64,000 nucleotides of DNA. Source: an uncultured bacterium. Its GTDB lineage: Bacteria > Bacillota_I > Bacilli_A > RFN20 > CAG-826. The first letter of the stretch is position 1. Every line of letters begins with the position of its first letter. A program made the position numbers and the translations under genes. Shown here one piece after another: positions 11,033-39,702 of the stretch. The notes beneath the pieces are model-generated. The model saw only the letters and a program-made list of their open reading frames with translations, made no database searches and was not told where the DNA came from. Where the stretch lies: assembly GCA_949297275.1 (NCBI GenBank), contig CASFQR010000007.1, forward strand, positions 2,627 through 66,626, written 5' to 3'.

Positions 11033-11250
11033 TTAGTCTTCCTTTTTAAAAATTATTTCCCAATGTCCTGCTTTCAATGAACCGACGAGCTTTATTTCAT
11101 CGCTACTTTTGATAGTGCGAGCGATCGTAACCTTGGACACTCAAAGCTTTTCAGATAATTCCTTACGCTTTATAGAAGGATTATTTCTAATTTTGTTTTT
11201 AATTAAATCAATAATTTTGATTTTTGGGTGTCATTTTGGGTGTCATGAGT
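11033..11250 (-). pseudogene. Remnant of the C-terminal HTH domain of an AlbA_2/HATPase_c_4/HTH regulator paralog, preceded by a 12-nt repeat x2
   Basis: Minus-strand frame reads KIIDLIKNKIRNNPSIKRKELSEKLGVSKVTIARTIKSSDEIKLVGSLKAGHWEIIFKK*, paralogous to the HTH domains at 11671-11830 and 38869-39060. There is no upstream ORF in frame. Confidence 0.5.
11222..11245. repeat. 12-nt perfect tandem repeat x2 (ttttgggtgtca)
   Basis: Seen directly in the sequence; it lies immediately upstream (in gene orientation) of the HTH remnant. Confidence 0.8.
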
Positions 11251-11444
11251 ACCTATCGGATTCAAACTATGCAAAGTAACCATGGAATAACTCTTGCTAA
11301 CTCTTCATCTTGATAACCACAAAATCATCTCTATCATTTAAAATAACACTAATAAATTATCAATTTTTCAATGTCCACTTATCGTGTTGATTGATTCTAT
11401 TTGCAATAATGCCTTTTTTCTTGAAGAAACAAAAGTGCAGCGCA

Positions 11445-11618
11445 CTATGCCACAGAAATTCCAAGTTTCAAGGCAATTTCATCATAGGTTATATATGGAT
11501 CTGTTTTTATTAATTCGATGATTGTTTCTTCACGGGTTCTGTTAGAAAATTCTGGGTGCTCATCTGGGCGCTCATTTTGATTTAATTTGAAAACTACATC
11601 GGAATCATATGACATAAT
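11445..11618 (-). pseudogene. Truncated HTH-domain fragment ORF (57 aa) of the same regulator family
   Basis: MSYDSDVVFKLNQNERPDEHPEFSNRTREETIIELIKTDPYITYDEIALKLGISVA*. This is the first half of the HTH module (ELIKtdPyITydEIAlkLGIS); the rest of the domain is absent. Confidence 0.4.
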
Positions 11619-11670
11619 TATTAATATAAAACTATCGATAATATTAAAGATTTTTCAACATAGGATGATT

Positions 11671-13032
11671 TTAATCCTCTTTATCGTTTTCCACTATTTG
11701 CCAGTGGCCATTTTTATCTGAGCCGTCTCTATAAATTAAACCTTTATTCTTAAGAGAAACAAGCGTTCTTGCAACTGTGCGAAGAGATAGGTTTGTTTTC
11801 TCACACATTTCTTTTCTAGTAAGATTACCATTTAAAGAGTGGCGTCCATTATTAGTTTTTCTGATTTAGAAACTACACCATCATTTACAGTGCCATTTAC
11901 AGTGCCATTTACAGTGCCATTTACAGTGCCATCTTGATTAAATCCATTCTTATCAAACGGAATCGTAACAGTAATAGTATTGGCAGAAAATTTATAAGCA
12001 CCCTTGCCATAAACCTTCACCACTTCAGGAACACCGTGTCCAGAACGTTCAACAATGCGGCACGATTTAAATATGTCCATCAAGTCAGGATTAACGGGTT
12101 TAGAAATACCTGTTAAAAATTCTTCTTCAGTAAGACCATAAGGAAGTCCGCCTTGCGATTCTATTTCCATCCTATCTTCATAAATATAGATTTGCGGTGA
12201 AATATGGTTATCCCATGAGTTGTGGACACAGGCATTGATCCAAGCCTCCTCAAATGCTTTATTGTCAAACATTCTTTTTTCTTTTCGGGGTCTACTACTA
12301 ACATCGACATAAGTAGGGTTAATTGCCTCACAGTAATTTATCGCGTCCTTGTATGCTTGTATTAGCGATTTATTACCATATTCATTACGCATTAAATACT
12401 CGGTCTTATCTTTTCCTTTAAAAACACAAACCGCAATCGAAATCCTATTTTCATCTGATAATAAATCTGCTAATAAGTTGTATCTCCCTTCATTTGTTAC
12501 AAGGTTAAAATTACTTAAGAAAGTATCATCATTAATATGAATTTGATTTAAACGAAGCTTATCTCTTAATGTCTCAAATTTTAAATCGGTTCTATTAACA
12601 GGGATTTCGCTTAACAAGGTGCGCTTATAATTTAAAGAAGCAACGAATCTTCTATCTATCTCCTCTTCACTCATCGGCGTTGAAGATGTTCCATCTCGAT
12701 AGAAACAACCAGTCGCACTTCTCCCCTCTTTCTTAATGTAATAGAGTTTATTTCCTTTAGTTACTTTAATAACAATGATCGTTTTATCATCTTCAAGTAA
12801 TGAACCTATTTCACATAAACCTTCAGTAGATGGCAGAATCTGATCTCTAATAATATCTCTAATTTCTCTCATTGTTTTATCAACATTAGAAATATCTAAG
12901 ATATCATCATTATTATCAACACCTATATAGATAGTCCCATTTCTCGTATTAAGAAAAGCAACGACTTCTTATGCAAAGTCTTTCGTTAATGTTCTTTTAA
13001 GTTCGATAGTTTCAGATTCTTGAAATTTCATA
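11671..13032 (-). pseudogene. AlbA_2 (Schlafen-like divergent AAA) + HATPase_c_4 + C-terminal HTH putative regulator; disrupted by one in-frame TAA and one frameshift
   Basis: The N-terminal segment MKFQESETIELKRTLTKDFA is followed by an in-frame TAA (plus 12970-12972), then EVVAFLNTRNGTIYIGVDNND... continuing into ORF 11832..12872. That ORF contains the HATPase_c_4-like region HNSWDNHISPQIYIYEDRMEIESQGGLPYG and a (GTVN)4 repeat. The HTH domain HSLNGNLTRKEMCEKTNLSLRTVARTLVSLKNKGLIYRDGSDKNGHWQIVENDKED* lies in the -1 frame, from about 11840 to 11671. Confidence 0.7.
11879..11931. repeat. 12-nt tandem repeat, about 4.3 copies (ccatttacagtg), encoding (GTVN)4
   Basis: Seen directly; it lies at the linker between the HATPase_c_4-like region and the HTH domain. 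Confidence 0.85.
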
Positions 13033-13303
13033 ATAAAAAGGATTTTCTATCAAATATTATATAGAAAAAACCGACAGAATATCTAGGAATTTACGCTTAT
13101 TTTGTAGTAACTAAATCAACATGGCAAATTATCTTCTTATATCCTTATTTATAATTTACGAATATTCTAACTCGAAGGGCTACCTCGGTGTGCGTGCTTC
13201 GATGGTTTAAAGATTTAGAGGAGTTTTTGACTATTTCCATGGCTATAACATAATCCTAAAAATTTAGGATACGACATAGTAAGCACGAATTAGTAAGATT
13301 TGG

Positions 13304-13343
13304 TAAAAAAACCTATAATGACTAACATTATAGGCGTTTTTTT
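13304..13343. terminator. Bidirectional intrinsic terminator (cctataatg-actaa-cattatagg), A-run on one side and T-run on the other
   Basis: 9-bp perfect inverted repeat flanked by aaaaaaa and ttttttt; it sits just 3' of tRNA-Lys. Confidence 0.6.
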
Positions 13344-13348
13344 AAAGA

Positions 13349-13424
13349 TGGTACACCATACAGGGATCGAACCTGCGACCCACTGATTAAGAGTCAGTTG
13401 CTCTTCCAGCTGAGCTAATGGTGC
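13349..13424 (-). tRNA. tRNA-Lys (anticodon CUU)
   Basis: The reverse complement folds as a cloverleaf. The acceptor is GCACCAU/AUGGUGU (G1-U72), the D stem GCUC/GAGC, the anticodon stem ACUGA/UCAGU with loop CUCUUAA (anticodon CUU), and the T arm GCAGG-UUCGAUC-CCUGU. A CCA end is encoded. Confidence 0.85.
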
Positions 13425-13514
13425 AAGCGCACTAATAATAATATAAATAAAGATAATATTCAAGATAAAAAGGGGTCAAAATTGACCCCTGATTATTTTT
13501 TAATTAAGGAAAGA

Positions 13515-14765
13515 TTAAGCAGTAGCTAAAGCGATATCGCCTTCGTTCCAAGGCATGACTTCATAAGCGGCATCGGCTGTGCTTTCCCAGCCACTTTGAA
13601 CACCACTATTGAAATTCAATGTACCTTTAATCTTAAGGGTATCACCGCGTTTCACATTAGCTAAAACTTCCGCATAGGCATCGCCAATCCCAGCGTTTTC
13701 ACGATTGACATGGTAATTGTAGGCGATATTAAGAGAAGCACCACCAATATCGACAGCAAAAACGCAACGCGCGCCAGGAGTAAAGGCATCAATTTGATTA
13801 CCGTTTTGATCAAAATATTGACCTATGAAACGACCTTCAAATTCAACTGGACGGTGGCAATAACCATCAAATTGTGAAAGAGTATTATATAATTCAGCTG
13901 TCAATTGAATGGCTGGAGCTGGTTCTTCAACATTCGTTGTATTTTCTTCTTCAGGAACATCGCGAATAGCGTTCACAAAAGAAAGTTGAGGTGCACCATA
14001 GTAACTAGCTGTTTCAGCTCGCACTTCAATTAAATTACCAACTGTTAAATGACGATAATTAGAAGGAATTAAACCAGTGCCACTACCAGCATAAAGGGTC
14101 ATATAGTGTTCACCATCAGCGATTAAAGCTGTATTACCATCAGGTAAATAGCCAACAACATAACCGCGTGTCTTAACATAATAATAAGCCGAATCATTAT
14201 TAGTTTTTCCAATCCAGGAATAGCGGCCATCCTCGCCAGTTTCATATAATTCTTCAATGGTATATTCGACAAATTCTAATGTAGTTCCATAGGCCGTCGC
14301 GTTATAAGTGGAAGTTGCAGTCACTGTTTGGCCTTCAATTGAAGCGGTAACTTCAAAAGATAATGGGACTGATTGTTTATCAGGAATATTATCAAAATTA
14401 ACTTCAATCATACTAATCGCATCATTTTTAGGATCACTATTAGGAACAAAAGTTAAATAATCATTATATTGTTCGTCCCAACTCCAATCAAAATCGACGC
14501 GAATTTGTTTATTATAACCGCGCGGAGTAGTTAACATATAAGAGAAAACTTCGACATTGTCGCCGCTATCGCATAAAAGGTTATTCATCATATTTGCACC
14601 AGGCACTAGAGGAATACCACCACTACTCGTCGCACAAATCGCGCGAACATTAACAGCGTAATCAACATAAGCTTGATAATCTTCTTCGCTCATACAACTT
14701 GTTAATCCTGTAATTAATAGAGGAATAACTAATAAACCAGCAAATTTCGTTTTCATTATTTTCAT
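13515..14765 (-). CDS. lipoprotein, function unknown; first gene of the ABC/nuclease cluster
   Basis: Signal peptide with lipobox LTSC; 416 aa; no recognisable catalytic motif. Confidence 0.6.
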   Translation of the reverse strand: MKIMKTKFAGLLVIPLLITGLTSCMSEEDYQAYVDYAVNVRAICATSSGGIPLVPGANMMNNLLCDSGDNVEVFSYMLTTPRGYNKQIRVDFDWSWDEQYNDYLTFVPNSDPKNDAISMIEVNFDNIPDKQSVPLSFEVTASIEGQTVTATSTYNATAYGTTLEFVEYTIEELYETGEDGRYSWIGKTNNDSAYYYVKTRGYVVGYLPDGNTALIADGEHYMTLYAGSGTGLIPSNYRHLTVGNLIEVRAETASYYGAPQLSFVNAIRDVPEEENTTNVEEPAPAIQLTAELYNTLSQFDGYCHRPVEFEGRFIGQYFDQNGNQIDAFTPGARCVFAVDIGGASLNIAYNYHVNRENAGIGDAYAEVLANVKRGDTLKIKGTLNFNSGVQSGWESTADAAYEVMPWNEGDIALATA

Positions 14766-14772
14766 CCTTTCT

Positions 14773-16311
14773 TTAATTTGCTAAAAGTGGATAAACATAT
14801 CCACGAACATATGTGGAGCCATTCCATTCATAACGTGTAGAATCGAAATATGGTTCAGTGACTCCACTATTAAATAGCTGCAATTGGTAGGTGTCATAAT
14901 ATTTGCTTAAATAAGCGGTGACGCGATATGTTACACCGATATTAAAGAAGCTAACGCTCTTGGAATTAGTCGCTTCAAATTCCGAACGAATATTTAATTT
15001 CACATCCGTCTTAGCAACACTTCCATAAACAGTATAATCACCATCATCAGCTATTCGATAATAATTTTGACCTTCCGCCATATTAGAAGGCGCCTCATCA
15101 TTTTCATCCGCTGCCCGAATAGTTACATCCATTTGAACATATTGGCCGACTATTTTATCTAATTTATCAATCGTGTCAATATTTTCATCTAGATAACTAT
15201 AAGGGGCGATATTATAGACATATTCAGAATTAATTTCTCGTAGTTTAGCAGCGATTGCATTAATTTTAGTTTCGTCATTCCAATCTTCTTTATTTTCAAT
15301 CCCAAAAGATTCAACATTGATATGACGCGTAATACCGCGGCCTAAGAAAACATCATCTTGTAAATCGGTGAGTTGAATATTACCGCTATAAGTAGTCGCA
15401 CGGCAATAAACTTGGATGACATCGCCAATATGATAACGGTCGCGATAATCCTTACCAAAACCAACATATAGATAAATTGATTCATAGATATTATCGCCAT
15501 CAGGATCAACTAAATCACGCAAGACAAAATTGTGACCAATCATCCCAACAATGACACCCATCACATGTAGACGGACACCGCTACCACCTTCATCTTCCGT
15601 AACGCCATAATTGCTATAATTTTCTCTTAATTCATCAATTGTTACTTCTAAAATCTTATTAGTGTAATCATAATCAGGATCCATTTCGCCATTGACGCGG
15701 CGGCCGCTATTAGACGCAGCTAAACCCGCCCGATTAAAAGCTTCTAGATAAGGACAAAATAAAGAGAAAGTGCCTAAATTGTTAACCGAATAACAATTTT
15801 CAATTAATTCTAAATTTAATAAACGATAATCGTCACCTGCTTTTACTTGATACCATAAGAAGCATAAATAGCGTTGACTCGAGGTATTATCAGTAATATC
15901 AAACGAATCATAATCGTTTTGTAAAACAACAGAATAGACTTTTTGTTTATTATTAGTGTCATCCCAAAGAATATCTTTCACAAACGCCGAGGCTTTAACA
16001 CCCCAAGGTTGAACTTGCGCCGTACTTTCTGGGGTGTTAACACCAATTAATCGACAAGTAAAGGAGGATTCACTAACTTGATGAGGATTTTCTACTCGAC
16101 CATTTAAGAAATTCATCGTATCGCCATCAGTTACACCAGTTAAAGTTACTTCACCAATTGCCCTTACACCATCGCTAGGTTCGGTAAAAATTTGATTTTC
16201 AAAATTAGCAGTTAGTTTTAAGGCATCAGTTTCAGGTGTCTTAAAAGCGTTACAACCACTTAATAGCGGGATTGCTAATAATAACGATAAAAGTAATGAT
16301 CGATATTTCAT
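14773..16311 (-). CDS. Lipoprotein with an N-terminal SNase (staphylococcal/thermonuclease-like) domain and a C-terminal extension of about 350 aa
   Basis: Lipobox LLSGC. The segment VTLTGVTDGDTMNFL...FTCRLIGVNTPES matches the SNase catalytic core (DGDT ... RLxGIDxPE), with Asn in place of the usual Asp before TPE. Confidence 0.65.
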   Translation of the reverse strand: MKYRSLLLSLLLAIPLLSGCNAFKTPETDALKLTANFENQIFTEPSDGVRAIGEVTLTGVTDGDTMNFLNGRVENPHQVSESSFTCRLIGVNTPESTAQVQPWGVKASAFVKDILWDDTNNKQKVYSVVLQNDYDSFDITDNTSSQRYLCFLWYQVKAGDDYRLLNLELIENCYSVNNLGTFSLFCPYLEAFNRAGLAASNSGRRVNGEMDPDYDYTNKILEVTIDELRENYSNYGVTEDEGGSGVRLHVMGVIVGMIGHNFVLRDLVDPDGDNIYESIYLYVGFGKDYRDRYHIGDVIQVYCRATTYSGNIQLTDLQDDVFLGRGITRHINVESFGIENKEDWNDETKINAIAAKLREINSEYVYNIAPYSYLDENIDTIDKLDKIVGQYVQMDVTIRAADENDEAPSNMAEGQNYYRIADDGDYTVYGSVAKTDVKLNIRSEFEATNSKSVSFFNIGVTYRVTAYLSKYYDTYQLQLFNSGVTEPYFDSTRYEWNGSTYVRGYVYPLLAN

Positions 16312-16317
16312 ATTAAA

Positions 16318-17868
16318 TTAGATGCGATCTTCAACTGGAACAAATTGCGCAATTGAGCCAGTATAAAGATTACGATAAACATTAGGAATATCGTCTTCGC
16401 TTTCGCACATGAAGACTTGGGCCATGACATTATCAACTGCTAAACGAATTTGGGAAGAACCAATGAAGCCAGGATCAACGAATTTAACCCAGGCGACTTC
16501 GTCAGCGGTTTCTTCTAACATATAGTTTTCTTCATTAACGGTGAAACTTTCTTGATATAAAACTTGTGTCGCGGTTAAAGTGCTAGGATCAGCGGCAATG
16601 AAGTTTTTGTAAGTATCAGTTTCAGTAGCAGATTTACTAGCAGGATAATAACCAGTAGTAACTGACCATTTAGCTTGAGCTTCACCAGTTGATAACCAAA
16701 CGATTAAGTCGAAGGTATTTTGAATATCTTCTTCATCGCCTTGGTCAAATAAACCTAAAGATGTTCCTTGAGAAATAACATATTTACGAACAACTTCACC
16801 TTCACCATCATAATTTGTCACATTATAAGGAATCGGGGCTAAGTGGACTTCGCCGTTACCACCACTGTTATAAGATAAACCACCACTAGAGCAAATGGTA
16901 AAGATGCAGTTACCAGCTTTAAATTGGTCACTAGAATAATCACTTGTGCCACCCATATCAGTCGGGAAACCAAAGATACCTTCGCGATAGAGATTACGCC
17001 AATATTTGCTCATTTCTAAGGTGCGATTTGCGTTATCATTTTTAGTACTATAGAATTGGACAGTACCTTGACCATATTCATTAACTTCAGTATATTCTGA
17101 ACCCCATTGACGGACTAAGGTAATGAACATATTCGCTGCGCTATCCCAAGAGAAAACACGGAATTTATCAGCAGTAACTGAGCGTAAATCCATCGCAGTT
17201 TCTACACCGGCTGTTTCCACTGCTGCTTCCGTATCATAAACTTTATAATCCGTACCGATAATCTTACCAAAGAAACCTTGCATAGCTGGAATGATTTTAC
17301 GACCTAAAGTTGCCATTTCATCCCAAGTCTTAGGAGCAACAAATTCGTCGCCTTCAATGATGGTATCATCCACCGTATCAAGAGCTTCTAATAAAGTTAA
17401 ATTATAAGCCATTACTTCAGTTGATTTATTAAATGGTACGCCCATCGTATAATCTTCATAAAGTGTTTGGTTTTCTAACATGTAGTCAGCATAATAATCA
17501 TTTAACAAATCGGTACCATGTTCCGCATCATAGGCGGTAATATAATCATCAAGTGGTATCATAATTTGCGAAGAAATATAACCAGCAAAGTGATCGGGAT
17601 AGCCATTAGCCATATTTGGGAAGGCGTTTTGAGAGACCGAATTATTAATTGCTGATTGCAAATTATCATAGCCGCCTTTTGATTCGTGGTAGATTGATAA
17701 TTGACTAAGCTCTGAATATTCATCTAATAATGTTTCAAGTGCACCGGTATAACTAGAACCAAAGCCTGTCCAGAAGACAATATCATAATTCATCCCCGGG
17801 CAACTTGATAAAACAAGCGAAGCACCCATTAACATTGCTAGAGAACTAATTTTCAAATTCTTTTTCAT
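16318..17868 (-). CDS. ABC transporter substrate-binding lipoprotein (family-1 / CUT1 sugar-binding type)
   Basis: Lipobox LSSC; 516 aa; it sits immediately upstream of the MalF/MalG-type permeases and a MalK-type ATPase. Confidence 0.65.
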   Translation of the reverse strand: MKKNLKISSLAMLMGASLVLSSCPGMNYDIVFWTGFGSSYTGALETLLDEYSELSQLSIYHESKGGYDNLQSAINNSVSQNAFPNMANGYPDHFAGYISSQIMIPLDDYITAYDAEHGTDLLNDYYADYMLENQTLYEDYTMGVPFNKSTEVMAYNLTLLEALDTVDDTIIEGDEFVAPKTWDEMATLGRKIIPAMQGFFGKIIGTDYKVYDTEAAVETAGVETAMDLRSVTADKFRVFSWDSAANMFITLVRQWGSEYTEVNEYGQGTVQFYSTKNDNANRTLEMSKYWRNLYREGIFGFPTDMGGTSDYSSDQFKAGNCIFTICSSGGLSYNSGGNGEVHLAPIPYNVTNYDGEGEVVRKYVISQGTSLGLFDQGDEEDIQNTFDLIVWLSTGEAQAKWSVTTGYYPASKSATETDTYKNFIAADPSTLTATQVLYQESFTVNEENYMLEETADEVAWVKFVDPGFIGSSQIRLAVDNVMAQVFMCESEDDIPNVYRNLYTGSIAQFVPVEDRI

Positions 17869-17923
17869 AGGAATTTTTTCTATCTCCTTTCAATATATAT
17901 TAACGCAAGGCGTTAACACCAAA

Positions 17924-18874
17924 TTAACCTTTAATGCCAGAACGACTGACACCACGCATAATGTATTTTCTAAAAATTAAGAAGAAAACAAATAAGGGGG
18001 CGGTTACAACCGTTGAACCAGCAATCATTGCGGTATTATCATTACCAAAATCACCTTGGAAGAGTGCCATAAGACCATTGGACACTAAGCGCATATCATA
18101 ATCAGGATCAAAACGATACATCCCGTTAGCGACAAGTTGTGGCCAAACATAAGAATTCCATGCACCCATTAAAGAGAGAATCACAATTGTCATGACCGTT
18201 GGCATCCCAATTGGTAACATTACTTTCCATAAATAACCAATATCACCAACACCATCCACCTTCGCGGCTAGATATAATTCATTAGGAATTTGTTGGAAAG
18301 TTTGTCTTAAGTAATAAATATAGAAAATGGAAACACCATGGACTAAGATTAAGGCTGCGAAAGTTGATTCCCACCCAAAGGCAATCGTTGTTTGGTAATT
18401 AGTAATAACCATCATTTCACCAGGAATCATCATTGTTGATAATAAGAGGGTGAATAATAAATTTTTACCTTTAAATTCTAAGCGCGCGAAGGCAAAGGCC
18501 GATAAAACCGAAGTAATCACAGTAACAAGGGTCGAGCCAATTGCAACCACAAAGGTATTTAAGAAATATTGGGCAAAAGAAGTTCTTTCGACTTCGACAC
18601 CCATACTATTAGTCGTGGTCGCCGCAAAGATTTTTACATAATTATTAACTGTCCAATTATCAAATGCTAAGAAGGAGAAATCACCAGTAGCCGTAAATTG
18701 ACTAAAGGCCAAGGTATCAATAAAGCTACCCACGAGCATGAAGATAAAAGGTACGAGCATGAAGATTGCAAAAATTGTTAAGAAACCATAAAGGAGAATA
18801 TTAACAATGACGGTTTTTATTTTATAGTTGCGACGAGCTTTCTCATCAGCGAAATATAATTCACCAGTAGCCAT
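17924..18874 (-). CDS. sugar ABC transporter permease (MalG-like)
   Basis: Six-TM permease with the EAA-type loop region (YLAAKVDGVGDIGYLWKVMLP). Confidence 0.8.
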   Translation of the reverse strand: MATGELYFADEKARRNYKIKTVIVNILLYGFLTIFAIFMLVPFIFMLVGSFIDTLAFSQFTATGDFSFLAFDNWTVNNYVKIFAATTTNSMGVEVERTSFAQYFLNTFVVAIGSTLVTVITSVLSAFAFARLEFKGKNLLFTLLLSTMMIPGEMMVITNYQTTIAFGWESTFAALILVHGVSIFYIYYLRQTFQQIPNELYLAAKVDGVGDIGYLWKVMLPIGMPTVMTIVILSLMGAWNSYVWPQLVANGMYRFDPDYDMRLVSNGLMALFQGDFGNDNTAMIAGSTVVTAPLFVFFLIFRKYIMRGVSRSGIKG

Positions 18875-18886
18875 ATTTTCTCCTTT

Positions 18887-20077: not shown

Positions 20078-20088
20078 ATACCTAAATA

Positions 20089-29467: not shown

Positions 29468-29744
29468 TGAATTTTCCTCCTCAATATCATCGTGTTATTT
29501 GTACACATTCTCGGGTGTATCATCAACTTTCAAAAAAAATGATGATTTCCCTTTTATGGGCACATCGCGCTTAATTATATACTGATTGAGATATTTCGCA
29601 AGTGAAAAATATGATTTTTATAGTTAAATCTACGAATTAACTTAATTTAAGTATTATTAAAGCACAAAAACAAAATTTTAAATTAATCCAAAAAATCGCT
29701 TTTAAAACATTTAAAAATCTAAAATAGATATTTTAATATTTCAC

Positions 29745-30983: not shown

Positions 30984-31145
30984 TTTATTTTTCTCCTTGA
31001 TTTTTGTTTTTTTAATTGTATCGATATAAAAAAATTATGCAATAAAATTAAAAGACAGGTGGAGTAAAAATGATATGGATTTTTAACTAAACACTAAGAA
31101 TAAATCTTGTTAATAAATGCATCAGTTATGGTTGATATAATTGTT

Positions 31146-32624
31146 TTACACTAATTTATTAATTTCAATTGTTGCTTCCGTGTTATTAAGCGCAGTAATA
31201 ACAAAATTATATTGGCAGGTACTTCCGTCATTAAAATGAAAATCGTTAAAGGTATTGATTCCAAACGAATCGCCTAAGGTAAATAATGTCTCATTATTAG
31301 CCTTATAACCATCTAAGAAGGTGTTTTGACCATTACTTTCTAATAAATGTAAAAGAAGATTTTCTGAAAAAGAATCGCCTAAGGTATAAGTATTATCGTG
31401 GGCAAAATATATCCGATAAGTACTTAAAGGATAAGTATTATCAGCAACATATTTAAATGGCAATAAAGTATTATTACTAATAAAACCCAACCTAGCGTCA
31501 ACATGATAAACTTTAATCCCAATTTGACTCATTAAAGCATCATTCGTCCTTCTAGCGTCTAAACTATTAAGATAATTTGGTGAATAAAATTCAATTAATA
31601 AATATTCATCAAAAGGCGTTTGATTCCAATCATCTTTTAGTAAAATTACATCACCAGTATTGGTAAATGGTCTTATTTTAATAGCAGTAGAATCGGTGAT
31701 TACTAAGGGAGTTATCCACCCTAATAGCATCTTAGAGAAAGAACTATGATCGCCTAAAGAATTATCCATCATATCCGCTCCACCAGTTGGATTATAACTT
31801 TCGCCATTTAAGTTATAGTAATCTTCTAAACCAAATAGATGGCCAACTTCATGAATAAATGTATGCGCATCGACGCGTCCAAATAAATCAGGATTCAATA
31901 AATGATAACTCGACCAAGAAAAAAGGGCTTCTTGGTTAACACTATATGCCCAAAAGACACTATCCTTAGCCTGCTCGCCTTGACTTAAAGGGGCGGAATA
32001 AACTAAATAAACTGGCACGCCATTGTCGCTGTTACCCGCAATATAAAAATCCACGAGGTTACCATATTTTTCCTCATACCAATTTAAGGCATCATGATAA
32101 ATATTTTTAATAATAGATGCGCGATTAGTCTGGCGATTAAGTTCACTCACACAATATTTTGAGCGATACCAATCACTAACAAACCCTGTTAAAGATAATT
32201 TGCCATAACTACTTTTATTGTAAAAACTCGCGACTGATTCAAATTGATTATTTTTATCATTACCAAAGAAAGCTTTTTTAATATTATCAAGTGTTTCTTC
32301 CTTGCTGCCTAAATTTGTTGCGGGATAATCATCAAAATCTACTGGAATCACTAATAATTTTTGTTCCCCTAGACTAGGTAGGGCTTGATGATAATTTTTG
32401 TTTTTTAATAATTGATAAAAATTAGTAATTGTCTGTTCTTCACCATTAACAATGTACGAATAATCTAAAAATTCACTTAATTTATAATAATTATCTGCTA
32501 TAAAACCATTATCTTCACCACTAGCATAAAAATTTTCATAAGGCACATAATGGTTATTTTTAGCGCAGGCACTTAAAGCAACAATTGTTAGAAGTGATAA
32601 AGAGATTAAATAACTTTTTTTCAT
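31146..32624 (-). CDS. M6 (immune inhibitor A-like) family zinc metalloprotease lipoprotein
   Basis: Lipobox LSAC. Zinc-binding motif HTFIHEVGHLFGLEDYY (HExxH + E, as in the M6 HEFGHxLGLxDEY motif), followed by DMMDN...GDH...SK..LGW. Confidence 0.7.
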   Translation of the reverse strand: MKKSYLISLSLLTIVALSACAKNNHYVPYENFYASGEDNGFIADNYYKLSEFLDYSYIVNGEEQTITNFYQLLKNKNYHQALPSLGEQKLLVIPVDFDDYPATNLGSKEETLDNIKKAFFGNDKNNQFESVASFYNKSSYGKLSLTGFVSDWYRSKYCVSELNRQTNRASIIKNIYHDALNWYEEKYGNLVDFYIAGNSDNGVPVYLVYSAPLSQGEQAKDSVFWAYSVNQEALFSWSSYHLLNPDLFGRVDAHTFIHEVGHLFGLEDYYNLNGESYNPTGGADMMDNSLGDHSSFSKMLLGWITPLVITDSTAIKIRPFTNTGDVILLKDDWNQTPFDEYLLIEFYSPNYLNSLDARRTNDALMSQIGIKVYHVDARLGFISNNTLLPFKYVADNTYPLSTYRIYFAHDNTYTLGDSFSENLLLHLLESNGQNTFLDGYKANNETLFTLGDSFGINTFNDFHFNDGSTCQYNFVITALNNTEATIEINKLV

Positions 32625-32765
32625 ATCCTAAACATATTTATATTACTCTATTTTGTCTAGCAAAGATAAAATTTAAAGAACGAAATAATTTTTTTCTTGA
32701 TTTATTAATTAAAAACGGCTTTAATCTCTAATATATTTTCTTAAAAGAAAAGGAGGAAAATAAAA

Positions 32766-35009
32766 ATGAATAAGAAATTCTTAGTCTTATTACCGGCATT
32801 AGCATTAATGCTAACGGCTTGTCCAGAAGGCGAAAGTGTTAGTTCAACTTCTTCAAGCGGTAATAGCGGAGATGTCAATGATTCAACCGGCAGCAGCGAA
32901 GGTGGCGATTCGTCAAGCGTTACCCCCGTTGATCCAATCGACTTAGAAAAAGCTCAGGCGATTGCAAACTTACAAGCGCTTTCTAACCCAGCCGTCGAAG
33001 CAAATGTCACATTGAATAATGGCGAAAAATCTAATATCTATCGAACCGTAGGAGTCATAGGTGAAGAATTAGGTTATTCGGCCGTTTATCAAGTTAGTGA
33101 TGCAGGCGAAGAACTTTATTTAGAAGAATTATATGTTAAAGAACCAGAAACTGGTTATTTAGCAAGCGAATTCTTAGGTATTGATAATACTATTCAATAT
33201 TCTCGCTATTCCTTAACTGGTAGTAATGAACCATTAATGTTTGATGATGTTATCTATGCACCATTTAGTGGTATTGATGACAATTCATCAATTTGGCACA
33301 CCGAAACTAAAACCTTAGAAGTAGTTGTCATGCTCGCGCTTGATGGTTTTGAAGCTGCTAGTTTAATCTTTATGCCAGTCTTTACCCCTACTCGCGTCAA
33401 TATTGTTTTTGATGAAGAATTAAATCCAGTCGCGATGGCTGCTACTTTAACTGAAGGGGAAATTACTTCTACTTTAGAAGGGCGATTTGTTAATGGTGAT
33501 GATGTGATTGCCACTATTGAACGCGTTCAAACGATTCCAATGGGCGAAGGAAAAGAACCATTAACGGAAATGATCAGCGCTCTCCATGATGCGAATAATT
33601 ACACCATTTCATATGGAAATACAACATCAGGTTTCAATATTTTAGTCGATAAAGAAAAAGGTGTCGTTGAACAATTTTATGAGGAAGGCGCTATTGCTCA
33701 ACAAAGTGGCACTTTCCGCGTCAACGATAGTGAATTTGTCCGTTTTAAAGGCGTTGAAGCTGATGGAACCACTGTCACCACTTCCACACCAAATTTAACC
33801 GGTGATCCGCTTGATGATTATTTTGATGATCAAACACCAAGCTTCAGCGTTTCAGCAGCTTTCTTTGATGTTGTTACTAACGAAGAAACTGAAGAAACTG
33901 TCTTCAAATTAAATTCTGCTTATGATCCTGTTACATTCTTAAGCGATTTAATTCCACTTTCTTTCTTTGCTGATCCTAGCACTGTTTTAAGTGGCTCAAT
34001 CGAGTATGATGATGGTACGGTCGAGGATGTTTCTCCAACTATTTCTGGCAATACAGAAAATGTCGTTGTAACTTTCTCTATGCTATATATGGGTGTCTAT
34101 GTTCTTCCTATCTCTATTACATTAACTAACATCGGCACGACCGTCTATCCATTTACCGCTAATAGTGAATATCAAATCCCAACTACTTGGGAAGAATTAT
34201 TCTATGATAGTTATGCAACTATTAATGAAAATTTAAGCACGGTTGGTAATGCTCATAATGAAAATGCCGTCTTAGAAAATGTCCCATTCTATTTTGATCC
34301 ATTAAATTCATGGGGCGAAGATACCTTAACAATGAATTATGGTGCCTTTACAATTTATGCCTTAATTGATAATGAGAATGATATTTTAACCTTCTATGAA
34401 GCTTATGTCGCGCTTTTAGAAGATGAGGGTTGGGAAGAAGTAACTAGCGAAGAAACCGGCATTTATATCTATGAAAACGCTACATTTGGTTTAAAAATAA
34501 CCTTGACGCTTTATTTAGATGCAGTTGAATTAACTGTGACGAATGTGGGCTTTACCTATAGTAATATGTTCTCAGATTATAGCGGATCAGGCTATACTCC
34601 TGATGTTTCTCACGAAGAATTAGTGAATTTCCCACTCTTAATGCCGGCAACAGGCATCCTTAACTGGGGAGTAGTCTCTAGTGATAACTGGGAAACATGC
34701 CAACATTTCATTCAAATTGGTCAAACCGATACATATATTAGTAGTATTGCTGCTGGTGTTGATGATGCAAATAGTGAATTCCAAGCTTTCTTAGAAGAAG
34801 AAGGTTGGACATTAAAAATTAATACCGATCCAACATATGAAGATATTAGCGAATATGTTTATAGCAAAGTCGTTGGTGATAGAACATATACAATCACTAT
34901 CACTTATCTATTTTTTGGTGGAGATACAGTTGATATCGCGGTTGTCTTAAGTGGATATGACACACCTACTTCCACCGACACTCCTAGTGAAGAAACACCG
35001 GTTGAATAG
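32766..35009 (+). CDS. large acidic surface lipoprotein
   Basis: Lipobox LTAC; 747 aa; Ser/Gly/Asp-rich N-terminal linker. Confidence 0.6.
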   Translation: MNKKFLVLLPALALMLTACPEGESVSSTSSSGNSGDVNDSTGSSEGGDSSSVTPVDPIDLEKAQAIANLQALSNPAVEANVTLNNGEKSNIYRTVGVIGEELGYSAVYQVSDAGEELYLEELYVKEPETGYLASEFLGIDNTIQYSRYSLTGSNEPLMFDDVIYAPFSGIDDNSSIWHTETKTLEVVVMLALDGFEAASLIFMPVFTPTRVNIVFDEELNPVAMAATLTEGEITSTLEGRFVNGDDVIATIERVQTIPMGEGKEPLTEMISALHDANNYTISYGNTTSGFNILVDKEKGVVEQFYEEGAIAQQSGTFRVNDSEFVRFKGVEADGTTVTTSTPNLTGDPLDDYFDDQTPSFSVSAAFFDVVTNEETEETVFKLNSAYDPVTFLSDLIPLSFFADPSTVLSGSIEYDDGTVEDVSPTISGNTENVVVTFSMLYMGVYVLPISITLTNIGTTVYPFTANSEYQIPTTWEELFYDSYATINENLSTVGNAHNENAVLENVPFYFDPLNSWGEDTLTMNYGAFTIYALIDNENDILTFYEAYVALLEDEGWEEVTSEETGIYIYENATFGLKITLTLYLDAVELTVTNVGFTYSNMFSDYSGSGYTPDVSHEELVNFPLLMPATGILNWGVVSSDNWETCQHFIQIGQTDTYISSIAAGVDDANSEFQAFLEEEGWTLKINTDPTYEDISEYVYSKVVGDRTYTITITYLFFGGDTVDIAVVLSGYDTPTSTDTPSEETPVE

Positions 35010-35137
35010 GAATCATAATCAATAATTACTAACTTAAAAGGGTCACGTTGTTGGCCCTTTTCTTTTGCTAAAAAGATTAAATTAAAGTCGAACGCACAAA
35101 TGAATTAAATTATGTTTATAAACATAACTATCAAAAG

Positions 35138-35157
35138 CTGTTAAATATAGCGGGGTT
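35138..35157 (+). repeat. Intergenic motif copy 1 (ctgttaaatatagcggggtt)
   Basis: About 20-nt motif AAAARCTGTTAAATAKRGCRGGGTY, also present at 35418-35437 and 44455-44474, all on the plus strand. Confidence 0.6.
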
Positions 35158-35417
35158 AAATAAAAAACTACATTATTTATTTAGCAATAACATTAAAACA
35201 AACAAAATAACCCCCTTTTGCGTAAAAAACAACGCAAAAGCTCAATATAAATAATTAAATTAGGTTGAAATAGCAGATTAAATAATTTTGGTGTTATTAA
35301 TATTGATATAAATAATATTTCTAATTTAAACAAACACATATTAGTGATTTTTTTGAAAATTAATCCATTCATAAATTAGTGAATTCATCACTTTATTTAT
35401 TATCGATATTGTAAAAA

Positions 35418-35437
35418 CTGTTAAATAGAGCAGGGTT
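35418..35437 (+). repeat. Intergenic motif copy 2 (ctgttaaatagagcagggtt)
   Basis: See copy 1. Followed by a 10-bp hairpin terminator aaaaggatcg-ccctagaaaa-cgatcctttt at 35451-35480. Confidence 0.6.
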
Positions 35438-35505
35438 ATTTATTAGATAAAGAAAAGGATCGCCCTAGAAAACGATCCTTTTACTAACAAATAATTTAAA
35501 TAAAA

Positions 35506-36678
35506 TTAACCTAACAAAGCACCTAAATTAAATAAATAAATGACATAAACATTTTCACTACTAATTAAATCATCAACCCCAATACCAAAAGTCAATGAAC
35601 TATTAACATACATGCCAAAAGATTCGTCATAACTAAAATTATTTTCGCTTAAGGATGCAATATAATTAGTCGCGACTGTTTTATCAGTTGTGTTAATTTG
35701 AATAACAAGCGCGCCCATATAAGGATATAAGGCATAGAAAAAGGCAAAAGCATCACCGCTAGCCTCAGGAATATTGTCGTTAGTAACATCATAATCAAAG
35801 AATGTTAAGGCAAGATTTAAGTCTTCACTTGGCCACGAAGAACCTATATAAGTCTTGGGTTGTAAGACAAGATATGTCACATCACTTTCATAATAAGTAA
35901 AAACATGAAGATATTCTTTAGGGCTAATAGCAAGGTAAGTTGTCATATTATCTTCAGTAGATGAAGAAGTCGTCCAACCTAGGGCCGCTAAAGAATCGTT
36001 ATATTCTTTACTGCCATCATAACCATAACCTAAGCCAATGACAAAGATGTTCATATTAGATATATAATCAAAGTATCCATATTCATCATAAGCATGGCTA
36101 GGAGTTGGTAAGGAAGTAATTTCCCCCAAAGATAAGAAGTCGGCGTAATAATTTACGCGATCATTTTCAAATGTATCATAGTGAATATAATAAAAATCAG
36201 CGACAAAATAACATAGACCACTACTAACTAAATTACCAGTTTGGTCAAAGCCATAAACATTCACCTCAATCGAGGTTAAAGCATTAACATAAATCGTTAG
36301 GGTGTAATCTAAATAATTCGCATCTTGATAAGTAACCGTAAAACCATCAATAATTAAAGATTTACGAAATTCATCAATATATTCGCTAGAAACAGTTCGC
36401 GAAGTCGTCTCATAAGAGACACAATCGTAGTCTTCATAATAATTGACTTCTGCACCGGGAACTTCATAATATGTCGGAACAAAGCCGCCTAAATGCGTGC
36501 TAAATAAATCCCTTTCTTCTTCCGTCCAATCTTTAGTAGGCTCACTGCTAATAGAGGTGGAAGAATTGACGCTACTAACATCGCTAGATGTAGGGCCAGG
36601 GCAAGATGATAAAGTTAGAGCTAATGCTGGTAAAATAAATGTTAAAATTTTTTTCATATTTTTCCTTTCTTTCCACAA
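35506..36678 (-). CDS. lipoprotein, partner of M6 peptidase module A; start probably at the internal MKKIL (about 36657)
   Basis: Lipobox LSSC after MKKILTFILPALALT; Tyr/Asp-rich. Confidence 0.55.
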   Translation of the reverse strand: MWKERKNMKKILTFILPALALTLSSCPGPTSSDVSSVNSSTSISSEPTKDWTEEERDLFSTHLGGFVPTYYEVPGAEVNYYEDYDCVSYETTSRTVSSEYIDEFRKSLIIDGFTVTYQDANYLDYTLTIYVNALTSIEVNVYGFDQTGNLVSSGLCYFVADFYYIHYDTFENDRVNYYADFLSLGEITSLPTPSHAYDEYGYFDYISNMNIFVIGLGYGYDGSKEYNDSLAALGWTTSSSTEDNMTTYLAISPKEYLHVFTYYESDVTYLVLQPKTYIGSSWPSEDLNLALTFFDYDVTNDNIPEASGDAFAFFYALYPYMGALVIQINTTDKTVATNYIASLSENNFSYDESFGMYVNSSLTFGIGVDDLISSENVYVIYLFNLGALLG

Positions 36679-36716
36679 AAAAAGAAGGATAAATCCTTCC
36701 TTTTTGTTAAATTAAA

Positions 36717-38342
36717 TTAAGCGATAGTGTTAATTTGAATGGTCGCTTCTTCGGGAGTGATAGAAACGATATCAATTGTATAACCAAAGGCTACTTTTTC
36801 ATCATTGCTATTACGCGTATGGAATAAGTAAGATTGGTAATTAGAACCTTCGCCATTAAAATTATCGCCTTGTTTAAATAGGGCTGCGTTATTAAATAAT
36901 ACGGAAGCACTATTACGGCCACCTTGTGGCAATAAGGAGATGAGATATTCATCCGGTTCAACGGTTTCAGTTTTGGTGTTAGAAGTAGCGATTTTCGTAA
37001 AGGTTGAACCACTAGTAGTCGATGAACGAATAATGCGGTTAGTGTACCCAGTAAAGACTTGGGTCTGAGTTTGTCCATTATAGTTATAAACACCTAAACG
37101 CGAATCAACATGGAGAATCTTAATGCCACTTTCAGTTGGGCAAGTTGGATAGGCTCCCCGCAAAGCAAATTGACTATCGCGTTCATTTAAACCAGTAGGA
37201 GTGTAATATTCTAAAACGAGATATTCAGCAAAATAAGTATTCTTATTTTCTTCTTCACTATCATAATAACCATAATAAGGAATAAAGATAGCGTCACCAG
37301 AACTAGCAAATGGACGAATCTTAATTTCTACTGAACCATTGACCATATAAGGCTTAACCCAACCTAAAATAGCTTTAGAATAGGCGTTATGATCACCAAC
37401 ATTATTGTCCATCATATCAACTTTACCTAAAGGAGCGATATTAGAATAAGAAGTATCATAATAGTCCCAAAGGGATAAAGCGTGACCAGTTTCATGAATT
37501 AAAGTGTGACAATCGACTTTAGCTTCACCGCTAGCGATTTGTTCAGCGGTCCAATTTTGGTGTTTACCATTTTCATCATAATAACCTTCTTCAAAGAAAG
37601 TTTGATAAGCAAAGAAGGCCCATTTACCAATATCTGGTTGTTGTTTATTGCCATCCGTGCTAGTGCCACCACAATAAGCCCAATAATAGCCATCTTCTAC
37701 ACCCATATCTTCACCATAATTAATTGGGGCCGAATAAACCATTGCTAAATAGTCGATTGAGCCATCGCCATCACTATCAAAATCTTGTAAAAGTTCATTC
37801 GCGCTTTCATAAAGAGGATTACCACTTTCATCAACGAATAAATTTTTATAATAACTAAAACTAGTTTTGATATTAGATAAGACCATGGTTGCATAAGAAA
37901 GTGGTTGGACACTTGTGGCAAAGGTATAGGCATCTAATGGTGTTTGTCGTTCAAAATCACTAAAGCCATATTGCCATGGCAAAACATAACCGCTAAAAGT
38001 TAATTTGCCATAACTACTTTCTTCATAATACGATTTTAAAGAATGCCAAATGGTATCACTCGCGTCCCCAAAGAAAGCGTTTTGCATATCTAAGCGGGCT
38101 TCTTCTTCGCTTTTACCATAAGTCTCTTCAATTTCAAAATCAGTAAATTTAATTGGAATTACTAAAACGCGCGCTTCGCCTTCTGAAGGACAATAATTTC
38201 CGACACCATAACCATCACGATTAACTTGCGAATTCGTGATATCTTCGGTTTCATATTGGAAATATTCGCCACCATTACAAGCACTTAAAATTGCCACTAA
38301 GGGAAGCATTGTTAGGATAGATAATAATTTTGTTTTCTTCAT
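36717..38342 (-). CDS. M6 (InhA-like) family zinc metalloprotease lipoprotein, paralog of 31146..32624
   Basis: Lipobox LSAC. Zinc-binding motif HTLIHETGHALSLWDYY and DMMDN..GDHNAYSK..LGWVKP; shares IKIRPF and the C-terminal IQINTIA/IEINKLV with its paralog. Confidence 0.7.
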   Translation of the reverse strand: MKKTKLLSILTMLPLVAILSACNGGEYFQYETEDITNSQVNRDGYGVGNYCPSEGEARVLVIPIKFTDFEIEETYGKSEEEARLDMQNAFFGDASDTIWHSLKSYYEESSYGKLTFSGYVLPWQYGFSDFERQTPLDAYTFATSVQPLSYATMVLSNIKTSFSYYKNLFVDESGNPLYESANELLQDFDSDGDGSIDYLAMVYSAPINYGEDMGVEDGYYWAYCGGTSTDGNKQQPDIGKWAFFAYQTFFEEGYYDENGKHQNWTAEQIASGEAKVDCHTLIHETGHALSLWDYYDTSYSNIAPLGKVDMMDNNVGDHNAYSKAILGWVKPYMVNGSVEIKIRPFASSGDAIFIPYYGYYDSEEENKNTYFAEYLVLEYYTPTGLNERDSQFALRGAYPTCPTESGIKILHVDSRLGVYNYNGQTQTQVFTGYTNRIIRSSTTSGSTFTKIATSNTKTETVEPDEYLISLLPQGGRNSASVLFNNAALFKQGDNFNGEGSNYQSYLFHTRNSNDEKVAFGYTIDIVSITPEEATIQINTIA

Positions 38343-38518
38343 ATCTATTTTCCTTCCTTTCTCAATAAAATAATTGCAACTTGCTTAAGCAAGTAGCAAG
38401 AGTATATCGCTTATTAATTTTCTTGTCAAAGTTTTTGTAATTTCGTCAGATGATTTTATATTTTTCAAGTGATAATGTCTTAAGTAGTTACAAGGGAAAA
38501 TGTCCTAAAAGCACAATC

Positions 38519-38812
38519 TTAAAAAAGAAAGTTACACACATATGGGAAAAGTGATACTAACTTCCTATAAACAACAATATCAATTTCATGTTTTACTGTA
38601 CGACTGATGCCAAAAAAAGATACATTTCTTTCAAACTCGACTTTATATTCCTTAAATTCATTTCTTTTTCTTTCAAACTCGACTTTATATTCCTTAAATT
38701 CATTTCTTAAAAAGATACCGAGTTCAAACTGTAAAGAAAATTCATTATAAATTTCTATTTTTTTCTCTTTTACATTATTTAAAAAATTTTCTATTATTTC
38801 TTTAAAATCCAT
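38519..38812 (-). CDS. Small hypothetical ORF containing a perfect 42-bp tandem duplication (protein repeat NEFKEYKVEFER); possibly a gene remnant
   Basis: Units at 38625-38666 and 38667-38708 are identical. There is no signal peptide, and the ORF ends just before the palindrome acttgcttaagcaagt (38381-38400). Confidence 0.3.
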   Translation of the reverse strand: MDFKEIIENFLNNVKEKKIEIYNEFSLQFELGIFLRNEFKEYKVEFERKRNEFKEYKVEFERNVSFFGISRTVKHEIDIVVYRKLVSLFPYVCNFLF

Positions 38813-38868
38813 TTTAAATACTCCTTTATCATGATCGTTAACAATCTCTTCGAATTGGCAATTACGCT

Positions 38869-39702
38869 GTCACGATACATTAGTTTTTTTATCTAATATT
38901 TCCCAATACCCAGTTTTATTTGAACCTTGTCTTTTTATATAATGTTTATCTTTTAAAACTTTAATATTTTTATCAATTGATGTTTTGCCTAACTCACATT
39001 TTATCATTAATTGAGATTTAGTAATATTAGGATTATTTCTAATTTCCGCAGGACTCGTATTTGAGATTTATTGAGTAATTTATTACCCACTTTATTACCC
39101 ACTTTATTACCCACATCATTTATGCGATTAAATGGTATAGTTACTACTATCGTATCTTTATTGATGGCTATTGCTTCTTTCCCGTATTTATTAACGATTG
39201 TAGGAATTCCTCTACCTGTTTTTTCACTGATGTGTAATTGTAAAAACAACTCTGATAGTTTCTCATTTACTGGTACTGAATGTCCTTCAAAAAAACCATC
39301 AAGAGTTTGCATAGGTGGTAAAGTGCCTCTTGATAAAATTTCGATTCGATCAGAATACAAAGTAATCATTGGCTCATTTAGATGAATCCATTTGTTATGT
39401 AAAAATGCATTGATAACGGCTTCTCTATAGCATTCAAAATCAAATAGCATTATTTCCTCTCTTTCCATAATTCTATTTTTTTCGTTTGCTTGAGGAATGT
39501 TTAAAACATCACCATAATTTAAAACATCATTTAAAGAATATAAGAGACATTTATAACCAAATTCCTTTACAGAATACATTTTAGAAGCTTTTGTTTTTCC
39601 CTCAAAGATAGCTACTCGAATCGGAACATGAGAATTATCAGATAATAACTGAGCCATTATATTAAATTTGCCATCTTTCGTTAATAAATGAAGATTTTTA
39701 AA
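38869..39702 (-). pseudogene. N-terminally truncated, frameshifted paralog of the AlbA_2/HATPase_c_4/HTH regulator (HATPase_c_4 part in ORF 39007..39657; HTH part in the -1 frame, 38869-39069)
   Basis: The ORF reads ...AVINAFLHNKWIHLNEPMITLYSDRIEILSRGTLP...(VGNK)3.... The downstream -1 frame encodes ISNTSPAEIRNNPNITKSQLMIKCELGKTSIDKNIKVLKDKHYIKRQGSNKTGYWEILDKKTNVS*. The N-terminal AlbA_2 part is missing; the alignable region (NLLADLLSDENR of the gene at 11671..13032 vs MAQLLSDNSH here) begins at the first codon. Confidence 0.65.
39079..39114. repeat. 12-nt perfect tandem repeat x3 (tttattacccac), encoding (VGNK)3
   Basis: Seen directly; it sits at the same domain junction as the repeat at 11879-11931. 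Confidence 0.85.

Follow-up and report, generated by a model that had tools for sequence, protein, structure and literature searches.

A 64-kb stretch of DNA from an uncultured bacterium (contig CASFQR010000007.1; hereafter the window, with 34% G+C and well fitted by the standard bacterial code) raises the question of why several paralogous genes should each bear a tandem repeat of 12 nt in the linker just before a C-terminal helix-turn-helix (HTH) domain, and encode that domain in the -1 frame relative to the repeat. The genes belong to a family combining a Schlafen-like AlbA_2 domain, a HATPase_c_4 domain and a winged HTH (wHTH). The first-pass annotation, which listed three copies (A, B and C), had proposed that the shared shift might reflect recoding, with independent decay as its fallback. 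Our analysis favors that fallback. The four copies that we now recognize (A, B, C and D) are very probably dead members of one fast-turnover family undergoing ordinary decay, and the 12-nt repeat is, with the same high probability, a separate and real feature, a linker of variable length. Every family copy and stub in the window is encoded on the minus strand, and coordinates are given on the plus strand.

Tandem Repeats Finder (TRF), run over the entire window, recovers all three reported repeats at the positions given for them, each at 100% match and with a period of 12; they account for three of the six window repeats scoring at least 50, the threshold considered, and are therefore not a chance occurrence. 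Copy A (11671..13031; its start had been put one nucleotide away at 13032) is a full-length pseudogene whose linker repeat at 11882..11932 comprises 4.2 units of aatggcactgta, encoding (GTVN)4. Copy B (38870..39712) has 3.0 units of gtgggtaataaa at 39079..39114, encoding (VGNK)3, and stub C, which is what remains of the 3' part of a third family member, has 2.1 units of tgacacccaaaa at 11222..11246, encoding DTQN-DTQK. Stub C had been delimited as 11033..11250, but reaches upstream to about 11300 (11033..11300). The total of three also needs correction, as a fourth member, placed in the family by tblastn and profile searches, was missing from the earlier list. This is stub D (11360..11660), the 3' remnant of yet a different family member, comprising the last HATPase_c_4 strand, the linker and the wHTH. 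It has its own 12-nt repeat at 11551..11575 (tgagcrcccaga, 2.1 units, 92% match by TRF), which encodes ERPD-EHPE and resembles the DEHP repeats of homologs such as P0094.

The domain content of these copies was determined with Pfam at its gathering or curated cut-offs, and their extents by a profile hidden Markov model (HMM) made from 126 full-length homologs. When its lesions are repaired, copy A matches SLFN_AlbA_2 (PF04326) with 65.3 bits (cut-off 25.3) and HATPase_c_4 (PF13749) with 56.8 bits (cut-off 26), and covers positions 22-380 and 395-441 of the HMM. Copy B had been listed as a copy of an AlbA_2/HATPase_c_4/HTH regulator. Its HATPase_c_4 domain is indeed present (48.2 bits against the same cut-off of 26), but the gene is 5'-truncated and thereby without the AlbA_2 domain and the first ~170 codons: similarity to full-length relatives begins only at about 39704-39712, and the HMM is matched at 171-392 and 390-441. 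Stub D falls within HMM positions 345-441, with a match at 345-410, and stub C matches positions 410-441, plus an upstream part seen by eye; both stubs keep only the last strand of HATPase_c_4, so that AlbA_2 is found in A but not in the truncated B, C and D. The Pfam models for HTH domains score just under their cut-offs (HTH_24 18.6-21.7 bits against 21.9). Repaired copy A finds no match in NCBIfam and only weak wHTH-type matches in PADLOC (CasR, E about 3e-4); hence, it cannot be assigned to any known defense family.

Three-frame translation bears out that in A, B and C the HTH is offset by -1 from the frame of the repeat, and that the shift falls close behind it, at 42 nt in A, 30 nt in B and 0 nt in C, the distance having been estimated earlier as within about 40 nt. 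In each case, the shift corresponds to a lost nucleotide. In copy A, the frame changes (0 to 2) between MDA and SLNGN, with a frame-0 stop at 11834-11832, and alignment to the intact ortholog P0002 of locus L002 reveals one T missing between 11840 and 11839 (GCCA[T]CTC); with the T restored, the sequence reads MDAISLNGNLTRKEM. In copy B, the change (frame 0 to 2) lies between VL and AEIRNNPN, and DNA alignments with the alleles P0122 of L037 (93.6%) and P0121 of L038 (94.4%) place one missing G at 39049/39048 (CCTG[G]CGG). Homolog alignments put the deletions of both A and B inside the first helix of the wHTH. In stub C, where the frame passes from 2 to 1, an A-run at 11225-11221 has five residues as opposed to six in L008. 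In stub D, the linker and the start of the HTH share a frame and two further -1 shifts lie within the HTH, in the form of single G deletions at 11449/11448 and 11426/11425 relative to the 3' end of a D-class gene in L022 (92% DNA identity). Thus, all five indels in the four copies are one-base deletions, specific to this lineage when compared with in-frame relatives of 80-97% DNA identity, and it is for this reason that a -1 frame appears in every copy. In bacterial pseudogenes, loss of a base is more frequent than gain of one; five deletions out of five are therefore unremarkable, and the sameness of the shift need not be by design. Every copy has further lesions: a TAA nonsense codon at codon 21 of A (12971-12969), an additional TGA in C (11143-11141) and 5' truncation in B, C and D. 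None of the four retains the uninterrupted open reading frame (ORF) of about 430-470 aa expected of a family member; being all interrupted or truncated, they are family pseudogenes.

The relatives, for which one genome per species was compared, show that the shift is not an inherited property of these genes. The most direct comparison is with L008, a contig of a metagenome-assembled genome from a sister species, which is syntenic with window positions 13093-11024 at 82.5% identity and has the same A-D-C block with each of the three in one frame, the counterparts of D and C being stop-free ORFs of 109 aa and 83 aa. The top homologs of A (86, 83 and 81% identity; 449, 444 and 449 aa), including P0002 (83% identity), encoded on a contig in GCA_964327785.1 (L002), read through in a single frame, as do the closest relatives of B (97 and 94% identity). 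Orthologs with the linker and HTH in one frame occur in L002, L003, L008, L009, L010, L011, L013, L024, L037 and L038, and the same is true among the matches listed with a complete C-terminus, except for a few broken relatives (P0007, P0019). The comparison with orthologs proposed earlier thus finds in-frame versions in related strains, though these do carry the repeat; and the notion that one shift had been retained through extensive divergence fails, each deletion being private to the window's copy and absent from its nearest relatives.

The earlier suggestion that the 12-nt unit constitutes a hypermutable variable-number tandem repeat (VNTR) and a linker of variable length is strongly supported across the family by copy-number variation between near-identical alleles. 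At least two tandem units are present in the linker zone of 159 of the 208 homologs with a complete C-terminus (133 with a period of 4 aa and a few with a period of 7), as against 7 of the 208 in a control zone of equal length. At the nucleotide level, nearly every family gene that was fetched has a near-perfect 12-nt repeat at about residues 355-374 of the query, in 2.0-7.4 copies, with L017 and L018 having a 33-nt unit instead. Class-A orthologs contain the same or a near-identical unit (ATGGCACTGTAA, with single- or few-base variants) 2.2, 2.4, 3.1, 3.2, 4.2, 6.0 or 7.4 times; the B class shows 2, 3 or 4 copies of VGNK within one 90%-identity cluster, and two copies in L037 and four in L038 at 93.6% and 94.4% DNA identity to copy B; and relatives of stub C have 2 or 3 copies. 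Because the number of units differs, protein lengths within 90%-identity clusters step by four residues (474/478/482/486; 437/441/445/449; 435/439/443), and the repeat counts match these steps, with (xTVN) at 7-10 in one cluster, (APVN) at 2-5 and (DTEN) at 2 or 3. Gain or loss of whole units between near-identical alleles is directly visible here, and replication slippage would be its likely mechanism. As the unit is 12 nt long, each gain or loss of one changes the linker by four residues while the gene stays on. The repeat is thus not of the phase-variable on/off type, which would need a unit that is not a multiple of three (the units are 12 nt, or 33 nt in a few relatives), and behaves instead as a hypervariable in-frame tetrapeptide repeat whose copy number differs among near-identical alleles. 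In the AlphaFold2 model of P0002 (built with a 70-sequence alignment; overall predicted local distance difference test score, pLDDT, 90.5), the repeat at residues 366-376 has a pLDDT below 50, which indicates that it is a flexible, probably disordered tether between the body of the protein and the wHTH.

An intact member of the family is a protein of about 440-460 aa with a Schlafen-like AlbA_2 domain, a degenerate GHKL-type HATPase_c_4 domain, the short tether and the C-terminal wHTH. The last of these, which Pfam narrowly misses, is seen in the P0002 model as a confident domain of three helices plus a hairpin resembling MarR, SlyA and MecI. Over its entire length, the model aligns with the structure of Corynebacterium diphtheriae DIP2311 (PDB 3LMM; E = 2.7e-20); the nuclease domains of the Schlafen proteins SLFN5 (7CUX) and SLFN13 (5YD0) are matched by its N-domain, and wHTHs of the MarR type by its C-domain. 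Sequence identity is 13-19%, and DIP2311 is itself an uncharacterized structural-genomics target. The likeness to Schlafen is one of predicted fold, and the family is not known to have nuclease or ATPase activity.

The evolutionary behavior of the class-A genes is that of a gene maintained in some lineages and frequently lost in others. Searches recovered 455 homologs of copy A and 1048 of copy B. Of the class-A-like loci, nine are free of interruptions (L002, L003, L008, L009, L010, L011, L013, L024 and L026), and eight, including that in the window, are broken, each at another place: by a stop at codon 32 in L006, at codon 64 in L007 and at about codon 264 in L005, by a frameshift at about codon 100 in L014, by breaks at about 100, 272 and 304 in L029 and at about 344 in L019, and by a deletion across positions 366-398 in L004. 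Between intact class-A orthologs, the ratio of nonsynonymous to synonymous substitution rates (dN/dS) is 0.06-0.16 at a dS of 0.5-0.6, and the gene is therefore functional elsewhere and under strong purifying selection. A gene that is functional in some lineages and often lost shows the pattern typical of accessory, conflict-type genes. The otherwise intact class-A ortholog of L008 has ATA in place of its ATG start (L008:537-539), and may also be heading for inactivation.

Both loci in the window lie behind a stable RNA gene of the same orientation. The 3' end of a tRNA-Lys(ctt) gene (13349..13424) is 317 nt upstream of copy A and anchors the A-D-C stack, and the 3' end of the tmRNA gene (ssrA; 40256..40651, Rfam 98.9 bits) is about 550 nt upstream of copy B. 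This arrangement recurs at 10 other tRNA slots in the relatives and at most of the related loci, with a same-strand tRNA 60-1800 nt upstream of a family gene or stub in L002, L004, L005, L006, L009, L013, L022, L024, L026, L039 and L043. The RNAs that mark the slots vary between genomes (Gly-ccc, Arg-tcg, Ala-ggc, Arg-cct, Arg-tct, Phe, Trp, Leu-cag, Lys-ctt and tmRNA). Other 3' stubs with repeats of their own trail family genes in L005, L008, L012, L013 and L022, and C-type stubs are also found after tRNA-Leu and, following a Fic gene, after tRNA-Trp. We posit that new members have repeatedly been brought in beside a tRNA or tmRNA gene, and that each arrival would overwrite the promoter-proximal 5' part of the resident and leave its 3' end behind. 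By this scheme, C would be the oldest, followed by D and then A. The subsequent decay of such leftovers, through point mutations and single-base deletions, is what the window displays.

Alongside this turnover, the C-terminal end of the protein changes hands. Within one 90% cluster (P0066, P0325, P0326, P0327 and P0338), the same body of ~360 residues is joined to three unrelated linker-plus-wHTH modules with GEET, GVVN and GEIT repeats; the C-terminal cassette, which is bounded by the beginning of the repeat, is thus swapped as a whole, and the repeat moves together with its own HTH. Stub D of the window is likewise mosaic, with L008-like ends and an HTH like that of a full-length paralog in L022 (window 11350-11660 against L022:5020-5335, 92%). 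Its counterparts in L008 (1861-2187) and L005 (7367-7693) differ at a dS of only 0.06, with dN/dS about 1, as opposed to a dS of 0.54 for the neighboring A genes. Such similarity between genomes, far above that of the adjacent genes, implies that the stubs take part in recent exchange or gene conversion. We also considered D and C as silent cassettes recombining into A, which is unlikely as A, D and C differ in class and the DNA of their flanking body segments is little alike; conversion between stubs and paralogs of the same class does occur.

Set against this background, the alternatives can be weighed together. Programmed -1 ribosomal frameshifting or transcriptional slippage, by which the body would be fused to the HTH and the output of the DNA-binding domain regulated, draws on the presence of the HTH in the -1 frame in all three originally named copies, 0-42 nt from the repeat, and on the A5 run at the shift site of stub C. 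Yet that run is the longest homopolymer in the three overlaps of the 0 and -1 frames (A, B and C), none of which contains an X_XXY_YYZ heptamer in frame 0, and the RNA around each site (121 nt) is no more stably folded than its dinucleotide-shuffled versions (z = -0.88, -0.26 and -1.82, pseudoknots lying outside the model). At gathering thresholds, Rfam finds two tRNAs and the tmRNA in the window, and no frameshift element or riboswitch. Moreover, the shift points of A and B are single-base gaps at non-slippery sites in the first wHTH helix, orthologs and near-identical alleles are in frame, and a frameshift could not restore a full protein from genes with a stop at codon 21 (A) or without their 5' parts (B, C and D). 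The well-known frameshift sites of dnaX and the IS3 family do resemble these loci in having a frame-0 ORF that overlaps one in the -1 frame, the latter encoding a separate domain; here, however, the slippery heptamer, the stimulatory structure and the conservation of the shift are absent, and there are extra inactivating lesions. We therefore regard recoding, as put forward in the first-pass annotation, as extremely improbable. Nearly as remote is the prospect that errors of sequencing or assembly produced the shifts in genes that are truly intact. Single-base deletions are a typical error type and one of the five lies in an A-run, but the other four are outside homopolymers, and neither nonsense codons nor 5' truncations are explicable as indel errors. 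An ORF scan finds the window densely filled with long uninterrupted ORFs outside the copies, and there is therefore no general indel problem in the rest of it. L001, a contig from a separate metagenome assembly (sample ERZ17292900), aligns with window 13412-7175 over 6238 nt at 99.97% identity, with 2 mismatches and 0 gaps, and has the same repeats, copy numbers and deletions for A, D and C. For copy B, the lesion turned up on no second contig, and an exact look-up of its 216-aa frame-0 ORF was unmatched; the deletion there therefore rests on a single assembly.

A different possibility is that the separated linker-plus-wHTH modules are functional small proteins that would bind the full-length members and restrain them, such that a split gene or a stub would be tolerated or even useful. 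The precedent is the Rpn system, in which RpnL and RpnS form a 'genes within genes' toxin-antitoxin pair, with the antitoxin RpnS encoded inside the rpn gene or downstream of it (bioRxiv 10.1101/2023.05.02.539157; PMC10327210), and which shares with this family the strain-variable repeats of four amino acids (dodecamers in the DNA), the HTH-like C-terminal domain and the extra copies downstream. In L008, both stub D (109 aa) and stub C (83 aa) form uninterrupted ORFs and have an ATG; stub C shows a dN/dS of 0.19 between that locus and the window, and the C-type stubs at other tRNAs show 0.09-0.31. Additionally, all 17 database matches of the C-type ORFs of 82-88 aa are small proteins, at 45-144 aa, most of them sharing one starting Met. 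These C-type ORFs are, however, stop-free upstream over differing lengths (101, 135 and 182 aa), a region which looks like the end of HATPase_c_4 in a full-length parent. The shared 'start' is therefore a conserved internal Met, and we rejected a conserved stand-alone gene for them. Further, D and C of the window are broken within the HTH (two deletions in D; a deletion and a TGA in C), stub D evolves at a dN/dS of about 1 between L008 and L005, the repeat is predicted to be disordered, unlike the helix in RpnS, and no internal start was identified in class A. On balance, we deem a small-protein role for these modules improbable.

Several observations also weigh against the view that the window's copies are simply decaying remnants of serial replacement. 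Three of the five deletions lie no more than 45 nt downstream of a repeat (11840/11839, 39049/39048 and 11221-11225), a clustering which exceeds that of uniform decay (post-hoc binomial about 2.5e-3) and may reflect error-prone events beside the repeat. The dN/dS of stub C against L008 could mean temporary retention as coding sequence, with gene conversion from functional paralogs fitting equally well. Serial overwriting, for its part, is a scenario suggested by the order and orientation of the stubs. In the window there is neither an integrase gene (the neighboring ORFs being a small kinase, an HTH protein, a pyruvate:ferredoxin oxidoreductase and an M6 protease) nor, downstream of the tRNA-Lys and the tmRNA, a direct repeat of at least 14 nt of their 3' ends. 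Furthermore, 'regulator' is for this family an annotation label only. With no integrase and no att repeat, a classical island bounded by an attR, which we entertained, is not borne out, though the position 3' of a tRNA or tmRNA would suit it. Among the broken relatives, L004 has a deletion that spans the linker, and the gene in L019 is broken immediately ahead of it; the neighborhood of the repeat may have a raised mutation rate.

In the literature, as far as an incomplete searchable library covers it, we found no description of the repeat in this family and nothing comparable beyond Rpn and the HsdS subunit of restriction-modification systems. Rpn is the closest published parallel, with the TAEL repeat of HsdS also close. 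In Rpn, the number of dodecamer repeats varies by strain and sets partner specificity, and the C-terminal domain is small, variable and HTH-like (bioRxiv 10.1101/2023.05.02.539157). The likeness extends to several features: in both, the repeat opens the C-terminal domain of a larger enzyme-like protein, a domain that is small, variable, helical and HTH-like; further C-terminal modules are encoded downstream of the gene; and the genes are multi-copy, horizontally mobile without the features of transposases, and prone to fusion and loss. The differences are equally marked. The body here is Schlafen-like AlbA_2 plus HATPase_c_4, whereas that of Rpn is a PD-(D/E)XK nuclease; the repeat here is a predicted disordered tether, whereas in Rpn it extends a dimerization helix; and the downstream modules here are 5'-truncated stubs of varying length from other paralogs rather than duplicates of the gene's own C-terminus. 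The AlbA_2 and HATPase_c_4 body, and the lack of an in-frame start near the repeat in class A, place the family outside the Rpn type, in which a small C-terminal protein made from an internal start neutralizes the nuclease.

In the Type IC HsdS proteins (EcoR124I, EcoR124II and EcoDXXI), a change between two and three copies of a 12-bp TAEL repeat alters the gap in the recognition sequence from N6 to N7 (PMC3874165). There too, an in-frame tetrapeptide repeat of 12 bp joins two functional modules of a DNA-recognizing protein, and the copy number (2 or 3) shifts by whole units, with an effect on spacing and not on whether the gene is active. TAEL, however, is part of a coiled-coil helix that separates two target-recognition domains, and what it does is proven, whereas the units in the present family vary between cassettes in a segment predicted to be disordered, and are not known to affect DNA recognition.

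The stacks of stubs also recall genomic islets linked to tRNA or tmRNA genes and displaced 'orphan' 3' fragments of genes, such as the orphan C-terminal modules of rhs and cdiA. The resemblance lies in variable genes placed directly 3' of a tRNA or tmRNA and in successive earlier 3' fragments downstream of the current gene. The present loci differ in having no detectable integrase or att duplication and no immunity genes, and in that the fragments come from distinct paralog classes and are not tips displaced from one conserved core.

These parallels prompt the speculation that the AlbA_2/HATPase_c_4/wHTH family is a conflict system, either defensive or toxin-like, in which the C-terminal cassette, made up of a slippage-prone tetrapeptide tether and the wHTH, would form a rapidly diversifying module for specificity or self-control in the manner of RpnS. 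We consider this possible, albeit on the unlikely side. If it were true, the length of the tether would be tuned in steps of four residues and the cassettes swapped among paralogs; the stubs after tRNA genes would be donors for gene conversion or free inhibitor domains; and the excess of lesions beside the repeat would arise as a side effect of the same process of mutation. It is germane that rapid diversification, horizontal mobility and clustering with defense genes were the first hints of anti-phage defense for the authors of the Rpn study (bioRxiv 10.1101/2023.05.02.539157), and that Schlafen domains have since been linked to prokaryotic immunity (PMC13462974). For the window itself, the consequence is plainer: its copies are ordinary pseudogenes, are to be annotated as such and give no reason to seek recoding. 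The gain is at the level of the family, which is very large, prokaryotic and uncharacterized, with thousands of members usually annotated as 'ATP-binding protein', 'RNA-binding domain-containing' or 'RecG-like'. The consistently placed, strain-variable dodecamer repeat, the exchangeable wHTH cassette and the strong after-tRNA habit provide a handle for its study.

Some further features of these loci deserve mention. At the tmRNA slot, L016 shares the tmRNA-side flank of copy B (window 39716-39989, 85% identity); we rejected it as an intact ortholog of B, as it holds a different, mosaic family member (L016:466-1791), the first ~130 residues of which are nearly identical to class A and the remainder of which belongs to an NGEE-repeat class. 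The allele of copy B in L037 (1026-1775) is truncated within ~15 nt of the truncation point in the window and abuts a serine recombinase gene (at 1808; Resolvase and Recombinase domains) rather than the tmRNA flank; a site-specific event may have occurred at this shared point. In the slot of tRNA-Trp in L039, a C-type stub with a DAQN repeat in three copies and the wHTH (4001-4267; also in L040-L042) lies ~670 nt downstream of a Fic-domain gene (2075-3334), whose product ends, by eye, in an apparent HTH-type segment of its own. The presence of the Fic gene implies that such slots host other toxin-like genes too. L002 has two full-length paralogs in tandem (6001-7335 and 7719-9050) that are 60% identical, each followed by a 12-nt repeat (ATTTATTTCGCC; 7554-7578 and 9271-9328) with GEIN units on the opposite strand, which may be inverted stubs.

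In the window, between the stubs and the core pyruvate:ferredoxin oxidoreductase gene, there are two small minus-strand genes (10066-10527 and 9613-10029), a P-loop kinase (KTI12/AAA_33-like, with a weak PADLOC match to VakA at 2e-7) and a 138-aa protein with a Rex-like N-terminal HTH, which may be accessory cargo of the tRNA-Lys slot. Just downstream of copy B, a minus-strand ORF of 97 aa (38519..38812), with no match in NCBIfam or PADLOC, contains at 38625-38708 a perfect tandem duplication of 42 nt, the top-scoring repeat of the window (TRF score 168), which doubles 14 of the ORF's residues (NEFKEYKVEFERKR/NEFKEYKVEFERNV).

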